Shown here piece after piece: positions 2,480 through 20,824 of a stretch of 64,000 nt of DNA. The position numbers were made by a program, and so were the translations under genes. Origin of the DNA: Pocillopora damicornis. Its lineage: Eukaryota. The notes under the pieces are model-generated. The model was not told the origin of the DNA. It searched no databases and worked only from the letters and a program-made list of their open reading frames with translations. The stretch lies in NCBI RefSeq assembly GCF_003704095.1, contig NW_020847248.1, positions 930,001 to 994,000 of the forward strand, in the 5' to 3' direction. Positions within the stretch are counted from its first letter, which is position 1; every line of letters begins with the position of its first letter.

Positions 2480-2952
2480 TCAAGTATTTGAAATCTCTTT
2501 TTTCAACCAGTCTTCAAGAATGGTTGCAACATCATCTCTATCCATATCATCCTCTCTAAGAAACTCTATGAGCTTCTCCACAGTTGCCTCACGCTTAACA
2601 GACCACATGTCAAGAAGATCATGGGTAGGATGTGCTGACCGTTTTAAATTTTTTATTACATCTTGATCATATCCCATTTTCTCTCCAAGTAAGCGATAAT
2701 CATTAAAATAATAATTATCTTCTACATTAAGTTTAAGACAGATTTTACTCTTCACTTTAATTGGAATGTCTGCGACTTTAAAAGATCGCCCAGTGGCAGT
2801 CACTTTAGCCTGATCTGCATTTGAATCATTATCGTTGGCACTTTTTAGGTCTGCTACGGCATTATCCATCTGATTCATTCCACTGCCCCCTTTGTTGATC
2901 TTCTTGTTAGCCTCAACGCCTGGCCTTTCATCCTCCACTATGTTACATTCAT
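2480..2952 (-). CDS. Terminal exon encoding a C-terminal death domain
   Basis: tttatag acceptor before 2952 (phase 1); KICLKLN..NDYRLLGEKMGY..IKNL..PTHDLLDMW..ATVEKLIEFL..RDDVATILEDW fits the six-helix death-domain pattern; stop at 2480-2482. Confidence 0.88.
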
Positions 2953-3575
2953 CTATAAACAGGAAAGGAACAAAGAATAGGTTACCCTCTTTGTTGTTAA
3001 TGGAGAAAAAAAGATTCGTAACCACCACTAATGAACGCAACCTTTTTTTTAGGCTTGCTTAGGGGGAATATATAAACTTTAATTTAATTTATACAGGCTC
3101 ACACGAATACACACACAGACAACACCCAAAAATTGTGATAACGAGTTAAACCTACATAGCTAGGGATATATTATTTAAACAATCAAACAATGGCCATTGA
3201 AAAGTGATTACTATAAATCATAAAATTTGCACTTCGCGGAAAAAAAGCACAATTGACATCGTAATTTACAGACTCAACCCCTTACATCAAAAAGTTTAGT
3301 TTCCTTGCATCGCCGCTAGAAGACCATGTCTCATGTTACTAGCAGCAGAGGTAAGGAGGACATTTTATTGAGCGGCATACCTTGGGCAATACAAGGAACA
3401 ATGTTTCACTGATTCAGAGTCAACACCGCAGTCGCAAATAGGCGACGCAAAACTATAAATTTTGAAGCCTTTGAATTTTGAAAGAGCAGGTGTTGTTAGA
3501 CGGCAATTCATTGGTTGACATCCTTGAGCTAATACATCATTAGATGGTGGTGGGTGTATTTTTCAAACATTTTAC

Positions 3576-3707
3576 CTGGTTCACTTTTACTGAATGAAGA
3601 ATTGCTGCCATTTAGAGGCATATCATCTTCTGATCCTCTTGCACTTGTGCTTGTGCTGGGGAGACCATCCTGGACAGATCTCCCAGTCATGTGGGTTGGA
3701 CCACAAG
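3576..3707 (-). CDS. Internal exon (132 nt, phase 1-1) of the death-domain gene, S/T/G-rich linker
   Basis: tttgacag acceptor and G|gtaaaa donor; ACGPTHMTGRSVQDGLPSTSTSARGSEDDMPLNGSNSSFSKSEP splices in frame to the death-domain exon. Confidence 0.8.
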
Positions 3708-4707
3708 CTGTCAAAACAATCATGTAAGAAAAATTTTTTTTTCTACACCTAAAAAGTTCCTCCTCATATCCTTTTCTATTTGTGGGGGTCAAAAAAGTAA
3801 GCAAGGAATTGTTTAATGTGGAAACAAAAACAAGCATCAAGACATCCTCAGTGAGGAAGTTAAAATTTTTTTCTGATTGCTGGGTTGATCAGTTCAAAGT
3901 TTAAGCTTATGGTGACAACACAGGGCCCAGCCGGAAAACACGGGCTGAATTTACTAGAAAACAGGGAAATCATGATATCCCATATGCAGAAAGAAAGGGG
4001 AAGGAGTAGAAAAAGACTTGTCTCATGAATGAAATTAAGTATTAAATTTCAGAGTTACTTTTCATCAATTTGAGATCATTTATGTCTAAGTTTCTAACAA
4101 ATATGTGTTTTGATATTGAAATCTCTTAATTTGAATGTTACACTAACAGACTCAGGGTTTTTCTGCATACTACTTCTTTTATTTTTATTGGGTTTAAAAT
4201 CACCAACCAACGGTGAGTGACTTTAGACCTGACTGCAATTTTATTGGGGGTCTTTGCATTCCTAGAAAATTGTGTCAAAACAGAACTCAAAACATTGATG
4301 ATTTTGGAAATTAGACTACAAAAAAAAAAAAAATCCAAATTGTAATGGACTGATATATCATAGTGGGCCTGATTGAAACAAGTGAGATGGACTGTAAAGC
4401 TCCAGCCAGATTTTCTTATTCTTCTTTCTTTTACTTCTTTTTTTTTACTGTACCTGGGTAAAAAACAATTCCCCTACAGTCACAGGGGTTGTTGATCTTT
4501 TCAGTTTCTTAGCCCACTGAAGATGGCCATGGTCTAGCTAAATGCCTGGGATCAAAAGTCATGATTACAGTCATTATACTGACAGACTAAAAACTTTTTC
4601 TTTCCCTAGGATAAAATAACACTTTAACTAGGCCACAGTTTTCCTTCAAATAATATGCAACTTCCCTGATCTGAGACTGCATTAATTATTTCACTAACAC
4701 TCTTTAC

Positions 4708-17162: not shown

Positions 17163-17594
17163 CTGTAGGATTTGTTTCGTCAATTCTGTGTTATTCCTCT
17201 TGACAACAATTAATTTCAAGGTGTTAATATTGTACTAAAAGCCCTGATTATTTAACGAGGAGCAGTACAGTTAGCAAATAGTTTTTAAGGCGATTGGCTG
17301 ATCTATCCTGCTGAGAGGCAGTTACGGCTCCATATCAGNNNNNNNNNNNNNNNNNNNNNNNNNNNNNNNNNNNNNNNNNNNNNNNNNNNNNNNNNNNNNN
17401 NNNNNNNNNNNNNNNNNNNNNNNNNNNNNNNNNNNNNNTGAAACGAGTAGTTGTAAATAGGACCTGACCTGGTCCTATTTACAACTACTCGTTTCAGTAG
17501 TCTTCTTAGTTGCGAGGATCTCTTAATTTCATCTCTCCACCGCAGTGCAAATATATGAATTTTCATATATCTAAAATCATCATTAATTTCATAC

Positions 17595-20500
17595 TTTTTG
17601 CGCCAGATAAATACGCCAGCGATAATGATAACGATAACGATTCCACTTGTGACTGTTCCTGCTGTTGTTGAATCAATGGTTCCCTTTTTCGACGACACTC
17701 CTTTCGTAACCTCCTCTCCATTGATATCCTTGGGGAGTTCCGTATAATTACAAAAATTTTCGAATGATGGAGGGTTACAGTTTACATATATAACCTTGTA
17801 TCCACCTAAATGTTTGCTGATATAGTAGACACTCTTTTGCACGATATAATCCAAAGTGCTGTTTTTTATTACCATACGGTATGAATTGGATTGGGTTCGA
17901 AGAATGAGTGAAAAAACAACTTCAGTATGATTCAGAACTGAAGACTCTCCGGGTTGCTTTAGGACTCTGATCTGAGCTGAACTGGCGTTGGAATCATTTG
18001 GTAAGATGCTGCATAACTGCTTTTCAATGGTTGTGTTTCTGTCAAGAAGGAAAGGATATCTCGATGTTTTACATATCTTATGCTAAAGCATGATCATGTG
18101 GTGGTTGCACATTGCTTTACATTCAAGTTCCACATTCAGGTGCACTGACTCAGAGCAGTCAAGTACACTTGGTCACTGTGTTGGGTTCCCCCTGCCTCCT
18201 AGTCAAGTGAGGCAGTCACTTTAATTCGTCCATACCGGAAATAGCTTTAATGCTTCCTTTTTTCTAATTATCAATGGTGTTTTCGCTCTGATGGGCATGC
18301 CTTCCTATGTTGGGTTTCCATAAATATTACTATATAGCAAGAAAATTTCAAACTTCAACGGTAATATACCAAAACGGGAATCATTTCATTTCCACAAACA
18401 GTGTTTGCAATACCTTGATTTGCAACTGCATGTATCCTCATAGCAGTAGTCTCTTATCCCTTTCACGACTGCTTGTTTAAATTTCTCTTCCTCCCACTGA
18501 TAGACATATTTTAATACATTCTTATAAGTTATTAAAATAGACAAAAAGGAGTAGGTTCTTCAACATACTTATCTTATTATAATATCGATACTTCGTCCTT
18601 TAGTCAGTAAACCCCTTGACTGCCCAACCTTAAGGGACCCTGCTTAGGAGTTATGTGCCCAACAGACCGTGCCTGGAGTATTTAGGCTACAACCGCTTAG
18701 TAAAGCTGGGAATGACCTCTCATGTGATGACTTTTGGATCACCCCTCAGCAGCAAAGCAAATTCCAGATAGTTCAAGGAACAGATATAGCTGCAATGGCC
18801 AGTATTACTTGTAACAGTATCATAGAAGTCCAAAAGAGCAGACAATTGTGTTCGAGCGAAAGCAAAAGACACCAGCCATTAATTATTCGCTGGGAGCGGG
18901 AGATGGGGGTGAGGGTTAGAGGATTTCTTTTTTGTTGCGATGAAATGTACTTCAAAAGAAAATTAAAACACCTCTTCCATTTTCATTTCCAATGTAATAC
19001 TGACAGCCACCAGATCTATTTAAAAAGAAGTTTGATTTGGCTAATTACAACTGGTGAACCAATATCTTTGTGGGTAATGCAGTGATAATTGATGGTTCAA
19101 AAATGTTTGTTTCGTTCTTTTATTTTCAAAGAAAATAGTCGAGTGTCGACTTTGAGTGCCCCTTGGCTACTAAAAAATGTTCTCTTATACTTGTGACTGA
19201 AGGTGTATTGCTGTCTTTTCCTGCAGCTTTTTAGAAATGTATGCCATGAAACATTCTTCTACATGGAAATTTAAAACACGTTTTCCTGAACTGATTGTAC
19301 GAAAAAAAAATTAAATTGTTCCACATTGAGGATTTTATTGTACACGACTAAATTTATCTTGAAAATAGTTTAAGTCTCCTTTACAGTGTTTATAGTTTAA
19401 AGTTTCATATAGGGTTAAATTAAAAAATCGAAGTAGGAAGAACAACAAACAATTTTTACTTACTTAGAGGTTGCCTTGATCCGTCTGATACGGTAATTCC
19501 ATGTATTTCAGGGAAAGACAGGTCGAGATTTCCAAGATATTCAAGGTTTGTTTTGTCCACCAGCCGAATTTTTTTTGCTCTGTTATCAGACAAGTAGACA
19601 GTCCCGTTGTGAAGTGTTATAGCGACCAGATGACTGTTAGTTATCTTTTTTGATAGTTTTTGATTGCGTCCGTCCAGATCAGCTCTACCGACCACACCCG
19701 GACCAGCGTCGACCCAATAAATTACGCTCTCTGAATCAGCGTAGTCTACTATTACACCATTTACCCACTGCAAAGGGAAACTGGAACTCGCTTCTACAAT
19801 GGTGACCCTTTCCTTCCCGTCTAAGGTGGCTCTCTCAATTTTAGGATTTGAACCCCAATCTGTCCAGAAAATGTACCTGTAAGATTTGATTCATTAATTT
19901 TGTGTTATTCCTCTTGACAGCAATTAATTTCAGGGTGTTAATATTAGAAAAAAGGACCTGATTATTTAACGAAGAGCAGTAAATTGTTAATAATTGTCAA
20001 GGCGATTGGCTAACCTATCCTGCTGATAAAAAATAACCAAAATTTCAAGGGCACGCTAGAAAAATGCGTCACGTCGGGAGTCAGGTGATACTTTATTATT
20101 TTGCCCATTTGGTTGCGAAGAGACGACTTTTGCAGCAACTCTCTCACGCCATTAGAGCAAATTGTACAAAACATGTAACAGAGAAACGTGATTCACCACT
20201 AATGAAAAAAGTGCACTTTGGATGATTTCACGTCTTCAATGCTATACCCTGAAGCGTTGAGAACACCGTCCTAGGGAAGTGGTTGAACAAAAAAAGAAAT
20301 AACAAAGAAAAAGAATTAAAAAAGGTCTATCCTAAGTGTCAAAATTAGACGTTTCCTAGTTATATCGAGCTTCTCAGTTCGTAAGTTGTGATTTCAATAC
20401 TTAAAGTACATATAACTTCTCCTTACTCACCCATTGACCGAATCAGCAGCAATACCTCGAGGCTTGTCAATGTCTCGGTCAAACAGTATCTTTCTGTCAC

Positions 20501-20824
20501 TTCCGTCAACCTTCGCCATTTCTATTCGGTTGTTGGTTGTATCCGTCCAAAATATGTCTTTGCTAATCCAGTCTATGGCTATTCCTTCCACTCTACCGAC
20601 GCCTTTCGTCACATTTTCTTTTATGTTCGTCTGGAGATCCATTCTTTTAATGGTGCCACCCCCAAAGTCACTCCAATAGATATAATTGTCCTCTACGTCC
20701 ACTGCAATGGCAAAGACCCGTCCAATATCTTGCGCTACAACACTAGAAGCGGTTTTCCCAGCGGACAGGTTGATACTATTTATGGCATTCCCAACACTAT
20801 AGTACAAGCATGGCTCTTCACACG
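17595..20824 (-). CDS. YWTD beta-propeller-SEA-like-TM receptor, copy A; exons 20824-20431, 19876-19464, 19015-18972, 18496-18414, 18038-17595
   Basis: All junctions are GT-AG and phase-compatible (1,2,1,0,2,2); motifs IYWSD, IFWTD, IFWTDW, IYWVD, VYLSD; then LVAVSITLEMKMEE|WEEEKFKQAVVKGIRDYC; TM GIVIVIIIAGVFIWRK. Confidence 0.88.

Follow-up and report, generated by a model that had tools for sequence, protein, structure and literature searches.

Among membrane receptors with a cytoplasmic death domain, the ectodomains known are those of TNFR, UNC5 and a few other types, and shuffling of death-fold domains is common in marine invertebrates. The window analysed here, 64,000 nucleotides of contig NW_020847248.1 of the coral Pocillopora damicornis, raises the question of whether a YWTD propeller and a death domain can belong to one receptor gene, how such a gene arose, and what its product does.

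A chain of ten exons with GT-AG introns gives a stop-free frame of 762 amino acids, in the order signal peptide, six-bladed YWTD propeller, SEA-like module, one TM helix, linker and death domain (Table 1). Canonical GT/AG ends were found where expected in all 13 exons examined. Ldl_recept_b was matched across the YWTD exons (Pfam E 1e-13 to 4e-16) and PF00531 in the death-domain exon (E 8.2e-10). The cytoplasmic tail is N/D/S-rich, and a low-complexity linker of about 170 residues separates the TM helix from the death domain. Two RefSeq models of Pocillopora verrucosa, XP_066021678.1 and XP_066021679.1, share this layout, the chain being 87% and 95% identical to them. Both lie on a 31-Mb contig and have Ldl_recept_b and Death in one frame; the architecture is already in RefSeq, as 'uncharacterized'. 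The propeller is complete (Ldl_recept_b E 3e-27, with six YWTD-like motifs in XP_066021678.1) and, as had been described, single, Pfam finding neither LDLa nor EGF in the two models. NPxY and PPP[ST]P tail motifs do not occur in these models, in Stylophora P0009 or in Desmophyllum P0011. That one TM helix and a cytoplasmic death domain stand in a single chain follows from profiles, the exon chain and hydropathy, with junction support from RNA; a single-sequence fold of XP_066021678.1 reached a pLDDT of 40.6 and was set aside.

Table 1. Features of the receptor locus, in window coordinates
Feature	Coordinates	Strand	Remarks
Signal-peptide exon	43028..43088	-	ATG at 43088, donor in phase 1; scaffolding puts it 22 kb away; 17/18 and 17/20 identity with N-termini of XP_066021678.1 and XP_066021679.1
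YWTD exon 1, blades 1-3	20431..20824	-	Ldl_recept_b E 1.3e-13; 123/130 identity with XP_066021678.1
YWTD exon 2 copy A, blades 4-6	19464..19876	-	Ldl_recept_b E 7.9e-16; 137/137 identity with XP_066021679.1
SEA-like small exon 1, copy A	18972..19015	-	14/14 identity with XP_066021678.1, XP_066021679.1 and Stylophora P0009
SEA-like small exon 2, copy A	18414..18496	-	27/27 identity with XP_066021679.1
SEA-like end, stalk and TM, copy A	17595..18038	-	145/147 identity with XP_066021679.1; hydropathy peak 2.5
YWTD exon 2 copy B	16744..17162	-	130/139 identity with XP_066021678.1
SEA-like small exon 1, copy B	16465..16508	-	14/14 identity
SEA-like end and TM, copy B	15181..15582	-	116/129 identity with XP_066021678.1
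Cytoplasmic tail exon, copy B	14689..14888	-	Internal phase-1 donor; 59/66 identity with XP_066021678.1
Decayed 3' part of ancestral last exon, now intron	14449..14688	-	Homologous to Stylophora C-terminus
Broken Gypsy-type LTR retrotransposon in intron	6306..14448	+	Antisense to receptor gene
Linker exon 1, 45 nt, phase 1-1	4708..4752	-	13/14 identity with XP_066021678.1; skipped in XP_066021679.1
Linker exon 2, 132 nt, phase 1-1	3576..3707	-	41/43 identity with XP_066021679.1
Last exon: spacer of about 55 aa, death domain, stop	2480..2952	-	PF00531; 150/156 identity with XP_066021679.1
Third partial ectodomain copy	21293..23191	+	Small exons, SEA-like exon, pre-tail intron; gap-cut; 88-91% identity with A and B
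Second signal-peptide exon start	42206..42368	+	MKGL as in XP_066021679.1; gap-cut at 42369

The same-strand, phase-compatible exon set first outlined between 2480 and 20824 stands for the YWTD, membrane-proximal, TM, tail and Death exons, but the signal-peptide exon lies outside that range. A restored base near 14485 had been thought necessary to leave the tail exon. It is not, the donor being at 14689 (followed by gtaaaa, phase 1), as in XP_066021678.1, which runs from the tail exon on into the exon at 4752. The alternative donor near 14430 lies inside an LTR-like repeat of about 225 nt (right end 14448; five matches in the genome), and the EADEGCGASG frame is what is left, in decayed form, of the ancestral last exon. 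A supposed exon at 4890-4947, one base out of frame, is intron, no joint being listed there in the four RNA runs; the acceptor site does not survive in the second local copy, nor the donor site in the copy at C2390. The copy taken to be frameshifted is a ten-exon chain without internal stop. Pseudogenisation concerns only stray death-domain copies elsewhere (C3072 and C4262, with stops), not the receptor copy here.

In the window, two or three tandem paralogues have been assembled in shuffled order, with many gaps and inverted contigs. Its segment 2480..20824, initially read as one gene, holds parts of two, whose ectodomain exons form sets A and B. Another death-domain cassette is found 6 to 8.6 kb before the window start, and the locus sits in a cluster of YWTD genes, with SRCR-YWTD-EGF genes as its neighbours. 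The tail exon of copy A is missing from the assembly (gap 17339-17438), the matching tail motif being absent from the whole assembly, and small exon 2 of copy B falls in the gap 15931-16384. No gap separates tail exon B from TM exon B, and this tail exon has a single match in the whole genome, adjoining the TM exon. A genuine first intron of 22 kb was rejected in favour of a scaffolding effect: the intron at 42695-42471, 3' of the signal-peptide exon, is 91% identical to 21192-20965, just before the first YWTD exon. The Gypsy-type insertion and the gaps between ectodomain and death-domain exons are as had been described. The element (RVT_1, RT_RNaseH and integrase matches; 63 to 94 stops per frame) has its body at 6306-10986 and LTR ends at 10987-11023 and 14364-14448, with parts of a second copy, in inverted orientation and 94-96% alike, at 11124-14263. 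The contig with tail exon B ends, and the death-domain contig starts, in the same LTR of about 225 nt, at points some 97 nt apart in an intact copy; the two contigs are thereby joined.

In three of the four RNA runs (X1, X19 and X5, not X15), the joints 2952-3576 and 3707-4708 were found. A 24-nt loose end at 4754 in the polyA run X1 translates, read by hand, to the end of an XP_066021679.1-type tail exon. This connection of receptor tail to death-domain exons is found in one contig of one run, with a tail from a paralogue exon absent in the assembly. In X19 and X5 the loose end is another exon (two contigs each, agreement 0.6), and X19 additionally splices linker exon 2 to another 3' exon; neither exon is in the genome assembly, where the three loose-end motifs have no match. 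These other junctions accompany C2390-type linker letters. A transcript join of the TM exon to the exon at 2952 had been suggested as a check; the step from tail exon to linker is seen in X1, and no single contig of the four runs covers TM through death domain. Together with the two P. verrucosa models and the LTR ends at the contig breaks, the RNA junction bears out the proposal of one protein with a YWTD ectodomain and a cytoplasmic death domain, and we conclude that the fusion is real.

The death domain is absent from all five related chassis (Stylophora P0009 and P0012, Logan P0021, Desmophyllum P0011 and P0024), and from the C-terminus of all 19 cluster members. Over aligned columns, the window chain is 68% identical to Stylophora LOC111327815 and 44% to Desmophyllum OS493_029289; among the receptor relatives compared, EGF is present in the Desmophyllum one only. 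Position 14689 falls inside what remains coding last exon in the Stylophora orthologue. In the window, the sequence beyond it still aligns with the Stylophora C-terminus (local score 146-163, shuffle maxima 75-84 in 300 shuffles), although its frame changes near 14510-14516 and a TAA stands near 14487; in both types of paralogue the former C-terminus has decayed. HMMER with the SEA-TM exon gave ten matches, nine of them single-exon fragments (96-212 aa, uninformative about a tail) and one an unrelated repeat protein; a metagenome scan with XP_066021679.1 gave 25 pattern matches, none confirmed. The receptor family looks narrow, and its origin is likely to lie in the Pocillopora lineage, as judged from word-index searches covering few corals.

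Outside the receptor family, the closest longer relatives of the death-domain exon are GT4-Death sequences, of Stylophora type and from Orbicella (three of six matches). With XP_066021678.1 as query, the last exon is 51% identical over 153 aa to a GT4-Death last exon at C458:236534-236983; the homology takes in spacer and death domain, whose core is 49-61% identical to that of GT4-Death proteins. The death-domain exon, spacer included, is thus a homologue of the terminal exon in cytosolic GT4-glycosyltransferase-Death genes. The GT4-conflict domain is matched in P0004 (E 4e-54), and no GT4 match was found in the two P. verrucosa models. In the tree, the receptor clade (support 80/73) is placed without resolution among GT4-Death clades, no donor subclade being singled out, and the intron just before the exon at 2952 scores 49 against GT4-Death coding DNA (shuffle mean 51). 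In Acropora, GT4 domains are described as an expanded immune effector family of variable architecture (available text of PMC8195603).

A history may be proposed in which an ancestral YWTD-EGF-EGF-SEA-TM-tail gene, of the Desmophyllum form, lost its EGF exons to give the Stylophora form. Two short linker exons, together with the spacer and death-domain part of a GT4-Death last exon, would have landed downstream as a cassette, and an internal GT of the old last exon (14689) would have turned into a donor; the remainder of that exon would have decayed and later received the retrotransposon. The two sources of the chimera can still be seen, one as an orthologue without death domain in the sister genus, the other as the GT4-Death family of this very genome. 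With a splice donor that lies within the former last exon, this makes a clean, testable case of the birth of a signalling receptor.

The membrane-proximal module is predicted to be SEA-like by fold, with moderate support, in line with its first description. Its model (pLDDT 65.7) gave VIA Z 8.0 with a CELSR1 chain (rmsd 2.6, 94 aligned), 7.0 with PCDH15 MAD12, 6.9 with GPR126 and 6.8 with MUC16 SEA, and the best Foldseek match was MUC16 (E 0.015). These values fit the ferredoxin-like SEA fold but are of a size that common folds also attain, and Pfam matched no SEA in the two P. verrucosa models. Many SEA domains are uncleaved, and visual inspection of the module did not reveal the GSVVV-type autoproteolytic site of SEA domains. 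For the death domain, the best matches among solved structures are MyD88 (E 6e-7) and UNC5B (E 1e-6), and neither Fas nor FADD is among its 11 PDB matches; by sequence it is nearer MyD88, UNC5B and p75 than Fas or FADD. A predicted complex of receptor and GT4-Death death domains, computed without alignments, scored 0.17 (mark 0.34), a value that speaks neither for nor against an interaction.

The account we favour, and hold to be probable, is that of a small tandem family of single-pass receptors, formed recently in the Pocillopora lineage by a GT4-Death graft onto a death-domain-less receptor and likely to signal by death-domain clustering. The protein is likely a homotypic death-domain signalling receptor, with a predicted role in immunity or stress. 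By analogy with LRP5/6, MyD88, UNC5 and p75, binding of the propeller to a ligand or a surface would bring receptors together. Their gathered death domains would then seed a homotypic complex with a partner in the cytosol, for which a related protein of GT4-Death or MyD88/IRAK type is the most plausible candidate, ahead of FADD.

A selected fusion might also act as a membrane-anchored decoy or brake, holding cytosolic death-domain proteins in the way of NRADD-like TM proteins with a death domain; we regard this as unlikely, though the strongest of the alternatives. The long linker would suit it, as would the p75/NRADD clusters that are the Atlas look-alikes of the cytoplasmic half (0.78-0.81; Atlas best scores overall are 0.76-0.81, and all are leads only). 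Death domains that preserve the fold and vary on the surface fit decoy and activator equally. The complete propeller, however, is under purifying selection (YWTD exon dN/dS 0.30, P = 0.002), which suggests that ligand input still matters.

Less likely still is a young, nearly neutral chimera, its ectodomain retained for ancestral adhesion or ligand capture and its death-domain tail carried as a passenger through read-through splicing. The death-domain core has a dN/dS of 2.4 between the two local copies (18 versus 2 changes, not significant) and one of 0.72 against the GT4-Death gene (not significant), so that overall purifying selection on the domain is not established; SEA-TM copies A and B give 1.31. 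Broken cassette copies at C3072, C4262 and C2390 point to free duplication, and P0008, a RefSeq model of earlier date, has no death domain at its end. Against this, the frame is open in all five receptor- or linker-linked copies examined (P. verrucosa, P. meandrina, P. damicornis) despite a difference at a third of core residues between XP_066021678.1 and the window, and the old C-terminus has been given up in both paralogue types. Moreover, changes avoid conserved columns. The five receptor death domains differ at 4 of the 33 columns conserved in the family and at 32 of the 59 remaining ones (P = 6e-5); for the two local copies the corresponding figures are 1 of 27 and 14 of 53 (P = 0.015). 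An annotation or scaffolding artefact, in which the tail exon is the last of the receptor and the death-domain exons are part of another gene with its own 5' end, could draw on the gaps and inverted contigs, the other upstream exon in X19 and X5, the linker exons at C2390 and P0008, but is very improbable given the tail-to-linker junction in X1, two independent RefSeq models, the tail exon's sole genomic match, the LTR join and the C2390-type letters at the other junctions.

Building on the favoured receptor reading, one may speculate, with rather low confidence, that this is a new death-receptor class of one coral genus, in which the propeller senses ligand and the GT4-Death-derived domain recruits GT4 effectors or a Myddosome-like assembly to the membrane. 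If so, a surface sensor would be wired directly to a bacterial-derived immune enzyme, and the fast surface divergence among paralogue death domains would reflect partner or pathogen pressure. Cell-death and immune pathways matter for bleaching and disease in this reef-building genus, and PMC4715348 states that it is not known which molecule is the working death receptor. A YWTD and death-domain receptor was not found described in the openly available literature searched, bioRxiv 10.1101/2024.07.27.603686 included.

Several known systems share part of this design. TNFR-superfamily death receptors (Fas, TNFR1, p75NTR and coral wengen/grindelwald-like proteins) are likewise single-pass with a C-terminal cytoplasmic death domain, but that superfamily is defined by its cysteine-rich domain (available text of PMC4979521), and the coral receptor has no TNFR_c6 (no Pfam match at E <= 1 in XP_066021678.1 or XP_066021679.1), its ectodomain being YWTD plus SEA-like and its death domain tracing to GT4-Death genes. 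With LDLR/LRP and other YWTD receptors (LRP5/6, LRP4) it has in common the six-bladed propeller, signal peptide and TM; it differs in lacking LDLa, post-propeller EGF, NPxY and PPP[ST]P, and in having a death domain. Stylophora LOC111327815 (P0009, P0012) and Desmophyllum OS493_029289 (P0011) share propeller, module and TM, but end in a low-complexity tail, and the latter retains EGF repeats. Coral GT4-conflict-Death proteins (P0004-P0006; C458 cluster) share spacer and death domain, whereas they are cytosolic enzymes with neither signal peptide nor TM. The receptor is set apart from UNC5 and MyD88 by the absence of Ig, TSP1, ZU5, UPA and TIR. The shuffled innate-immune receptors of amphioxus, such as a cDNA-confirmed TNFR-caspase hybrid, use different domains ('LDL' does not occur in the main text of PMC2575513, as available), but they too are cases of lineage-specific grafting of signalling domains.

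The YWTD and death domains that the preliminary description had read from the sequence were both recovered by Pfam, Ldl_recept_b in three exons and Death in a fourth. When the death-domain exon was compared with longer proteins, 6 of 571 candidates matched: two Pocillopora verrucosa RefSeq proteins with Ldl_recept_b and Death, three GT4-glycosyltransferase-Death proteins, and one fragment with tandem Death domains. The fused YWTD-Death protein, for which a search of cnidarian proteomes had been proposed, is already present in public annotation. The two fusion matches are XP_066021678.1 (P0002, 763 aa) and XP_066021680.1; the latter has a longer isoform, XP_066021679.1 (P0007, 723 aa); all three entries are annotated 'uncharacterized' and lie on a 31-Mb contig. 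For the second gene there is also an older model, XP_058945479.1 (P0008, 538 aa), which ends after the tail exon without a death domain.

Exon limits in the window were fixed by aligning the P. verrucosa models, and canonical splice ends were found where expected at all 13 exons. A chain of ten exons encodes 762 stop-free amino acids, with an identity over aligned columns of 87.2% to P0002 and 94.9% to P0007. This chain is a mixture of paralogues: ectodomain set A resembles P0007 (137/137 and 145/147 residues identical), as does the death-domain exon (150/156), and set B with its tail resembles P0002 (130/139 and 59/66). There are 17 N-runs in the window, of which 14 measure exactly 100. The gene structure, frame, splices and homologies of the receptor are established, and there is very little doubt that the YWTD-Death fusion is real.

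Exon chain, Pfam domains and element remnants in the window
Feature	Coordinates	Strand
Chain exon 1	43088-43028	-
Chain exon 2	20824-20431	-
Chain exon 3	19876-19464	-
Chain exon 4	19015-18972	-
Chain exon 5	18496-18414	-
Chain exon 6	18038-17595	-
Chain exon 7 (tail exon B)	14888-14689	-
Chain exon 8 (linker exon 1)	4752-4708	-
Chain exon 9 (linker exon 2)	3707-3576	-
Chain exon 10 (death-domain exon)	2952-2480	-
Ldl_recept_b	20849-20430
Ldl_recept_b	19890-19459
Ldl_recept_b	17179-16739
Death	2950-2483
LTR, left 37 nt	10987-11023
LTR, right 86 nt	14364-14448
Second element copy, inverted parts	11124-14263

Half or more of the death-domain exon's words were present in 19 sequencing runs from 6 studies, with polyA RNA on record for 4. 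Contigs of four runs from 4 studies were aligned with window 2300-6300 only: X1 (RNA on record), X5 (RNA guessed), X19 (type unknown) and X15 (DNA-like). The joints 2952-3576 and 3707-4708, GT-AG on the minus strand, were seen in X1, X5 and X19, and were absent from X15. In one X1 contig, a loose end of 24 nt at 4754 reads, when translated by hand, INNGDQNT, the tail exon end in P0007 and P0008; its last bases match the window tail exon end at 14689. The P0007-type tail exon itself was not found in the genome assembly, which fits the gap at 17339-17438 directly behind TM exon A. The proposed link from membrane part to death domain is thereby borne out for the death-domain exon joints and, in one contig, up to the tail end; no contig of the four runs aligned to 2300-6300 spans TM to death domain. 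The TM-to-tail joint is read from the RefSeq models and from the 292 nt, free of gaps, that separate TM exon B from tail exon B. We conclude that this is a real, expressed chimeric receptor, likely at the level of the genus.

Counting against the link, another upstream exon appears at 4754 in X19 and X5 among the loose ends listed (agreement 0.6, with 2 contigs in each run), and in X19 linker exon 2 is joined to a different 3' exon; neither motif occurs in the assembly. These joints likely come from a relative of a locus on contig C2390, where the two linker exons are accompanied by a truncated death-domain exon, because the same runs carry C2390-type letters within linker exon 1. That locus (C2390:410128-416000; L023, L027, L028) carries the two linker exons with their introns in a third copy (81%); its death-domain exon breaks off after a few codons, and a different, weak Death frame (E 1e-4) lies 3 kb beyond. 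The RNA contigs suggest that other exons are spliced to a relative of this locus. Broken receptor-type death-domain exon copies with stops lie at C3072:12704-13837, where the upstream intron is included, and at C4262:312065-312211.

The donor in use is at 14689, followed by gtaaaa, and not the one obtained by restoring a base near 14485, as had been suggested. Read-through past 14689 can be aligned to the Stylophora orthologue's C-terminus (scores 146 and 163, against maxima of 75 and 84 in 300 shuffles), changes frame near 14510-14516 into PDTKRGA, a sequence that Stylophora also has, and runs into a TAA near 14487; EADEGCGASG is therefore the ancestral frame of a last exon that is now dead. 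The sequence from 14448 onward is a repeat with 5 matches in the assembly, whose flanks are unrelated in the other copies, and the restored-base donor sits within it. A candidate exon at 4947-4890, thought to be one base out of frame, had to be abandoned as well: it has no listed joint in the RNA contigs, the second local copy has lost its AG and the C2390 copy its GT. A multi-copy repeat (about 4980-5900), common to both local cassettes, lies in the intron above linker exon 1; its summed depth is far greater in the DNA-like run, and an 80-aa frame in it (5658-5419) gave weak Tudor/chromo/MBT matches below cut-off.

The breakpoints of the contigs that carry the tail exon and the death-domain exons both fall within one and the same LTR, in matching orientation. 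Intact copies of this LTR-like unit of about 225 nt occur at L015:8704-8924 and in L041 and L042; of the window copy the left part lies behind a purine tract, and about 97 nt of the middle are missing. Between the two parts lie inverted parts of a second element copy, 94-96% alike. The breaks support adjacency of the two contigs, short of proof because the LTR is multi-copy. The same element family stands ahead of a second death-domain cassette before the window, in the same orientation. TTAA at both outer element ends, if one terminal base was lost, is suggestive only. With 63-94 stops per frame the element is broken; it was likely inserted after the fusion, since it is young and the paralogue death domains differ by a third. 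The 22-kb distance of the signal-peptide exon is likely due to scaffolding, as the intron behind it (42695-42471) is 91% identical to the DNA directly before YWTD exon 1 (21192-20965). The assembly has three SEA-TM exon matches, three signal-peptide-region matches and two close death-domain cassettes; all fall on the window's contig and make up a shuffled tandem array, some copies of which may be alleles.

YWTD genes lie on both sides, so that the receptor locus sits within a large YWTD gene cluster: further YWTD exons on the plus strand 16-38 kb before the window, and at 52806-63053 (-), continuing to about 72200 in L017, neighbour receptor gene(s) with two SRCR domains, several YWTD exons, EGF, TM and an NPIY (NPxY-type) motif in the tail. 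A stray piece at 30147-30817 (-) resembles the tail exon of a receptor (AAFENPGYD, also found at 53378-52806) and shares 85% identity with DNA lying 11-12 kb before the window. A single-exon rhodopsin-family GPCR (31452-32381, +; 7tm_1, E 2e-23) has an inverted partial copy, 88% alike, at 47530-48547 (-). Broken frames at 34861-35789 (-) and 27095-27713, two copies 90% alike, are by eye presumably of P-element/THAP transposase type.

With P0002 residues 285-763 as query, 7 of 6607 candidates matched, three of which have the same chassis and another tail (P0009 of Stylophora, P0010, and P0011 of Desmophyllum). Death was found in 0 of the 5 full-length chassis members scanned, and a terminal death domain in 0 of 19 cluster members; Desmophyllum retains EGF repeats between propeller and module. 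The tail of P0009 has, at residues about 490-500, the tyrosine motif ENPYEEIP, lacking in Pocillopora tails; the death domain may thus have replaced a putative phosphotyrosine output. On the other side, P0002 607-759 is 51% identical, spacer included, to the last exon of a GT4-Death gene (C458:236534-236983; 72% over 262 nt of DNA), one of three on that contig. These stand in tandem at C458:224600-242400 (L030-L032) as GT4-conflict-Death genes, with a fourth GT4 exon on the opposite strand. GT4-Death proteins were found in Orbicella and Stylophora, which makes this family the older party of the chimera. In a tree of 25 death domains the receptor clade (80/73) forms an open fork with the GT4-Death clades, so that the donor subfamily is argued from the spacer, not the tree. 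Linker exon 2 matched 12 proteins among 23 candidates, 3 from Pocillopora and 9 fragments. We infer that a linker-death-domain cassette would have arrived downstream of a receptor gene, and that an internal donor in the old last exon would then have been taken into use.

Selection was significant in the ectodomain for YWTD exon 2, A versus B (dN/dS 0.30, P = 0.002), and for the SEA exon, A versus the plus-strand copy (0.28, P = 0.01). Not significant were SEA-TM, A versus B (1.31), and the death-domain core between local copies (2.4) or against GT4-Death (0.72). With conserved columns defined from 12 outside domains, five receptor-type death domains changed at 4/33 conserved compared to 32/59 other columns (P = 6e-5), and the two local copies at 1/27 compared to 14/53 (P = 0.015); between the window and P. 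meandrina P0070 the counts were 2/33 and 8/59 (not significant). The fold appears to be kept while surfaces change, in keeping with an interaction domain that is in use, whether as activator or as decoy. A selected role for the death domain is probable, and we lean mildly towards an activating one.

Six YWTD-like motifs make a complete propeller, and there is a single TM peak. Folding of the 148-aa module together with 13 sequences (pLDDT 65.7) gave a model of beta-alpha-beta-beta-alpha-beta with extra helices. Its top structural matches were ferredoxin-like domains lying next to the membrane in CELSR1 (Z 8.0, rmsd 2.6, 94 aligned) and in PCDH15, GPR126 and MUC16 SEA (Z 6.8-7.0), interspersed with unrelated ferredoxin-like-fold proteins; Foldseek placed MUC16 best (E 0.015). 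Calling it SEA-like is reasonable, not proven. Among 11 PDB matches listed, the best for the death domain were MyD88 (E 6e-7), UNC5B (1e-6) and p75 (0.02). NPxY and PPP[ST]P motifs are absent from the receptor. By analogy with how YWTD propellers and death domains generally work, a ligand would cluster the receptor and its death domains would assemble homotypically to signal.

The literature searched contained no account of a YWTD receptor that carries a death domain. YWTD, death domain and coral came together in one paper, a sponge study, and independent YWTD-Death fusions may exist in other animals. The coral death receptor's identity was stated to be unknown (PMC4715348), the CRD defines TNFRs (PMC4979521), and Pocillopora has TNFRs with death domains (bioRxiv 10.1101/2024.07.27.603686). 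In Acropora, GT4 domains are described as an immune family that has expanded and been shuffled (PMC8195603), and amphioxus has hybrid receptors that are expressed (PMC2575513).
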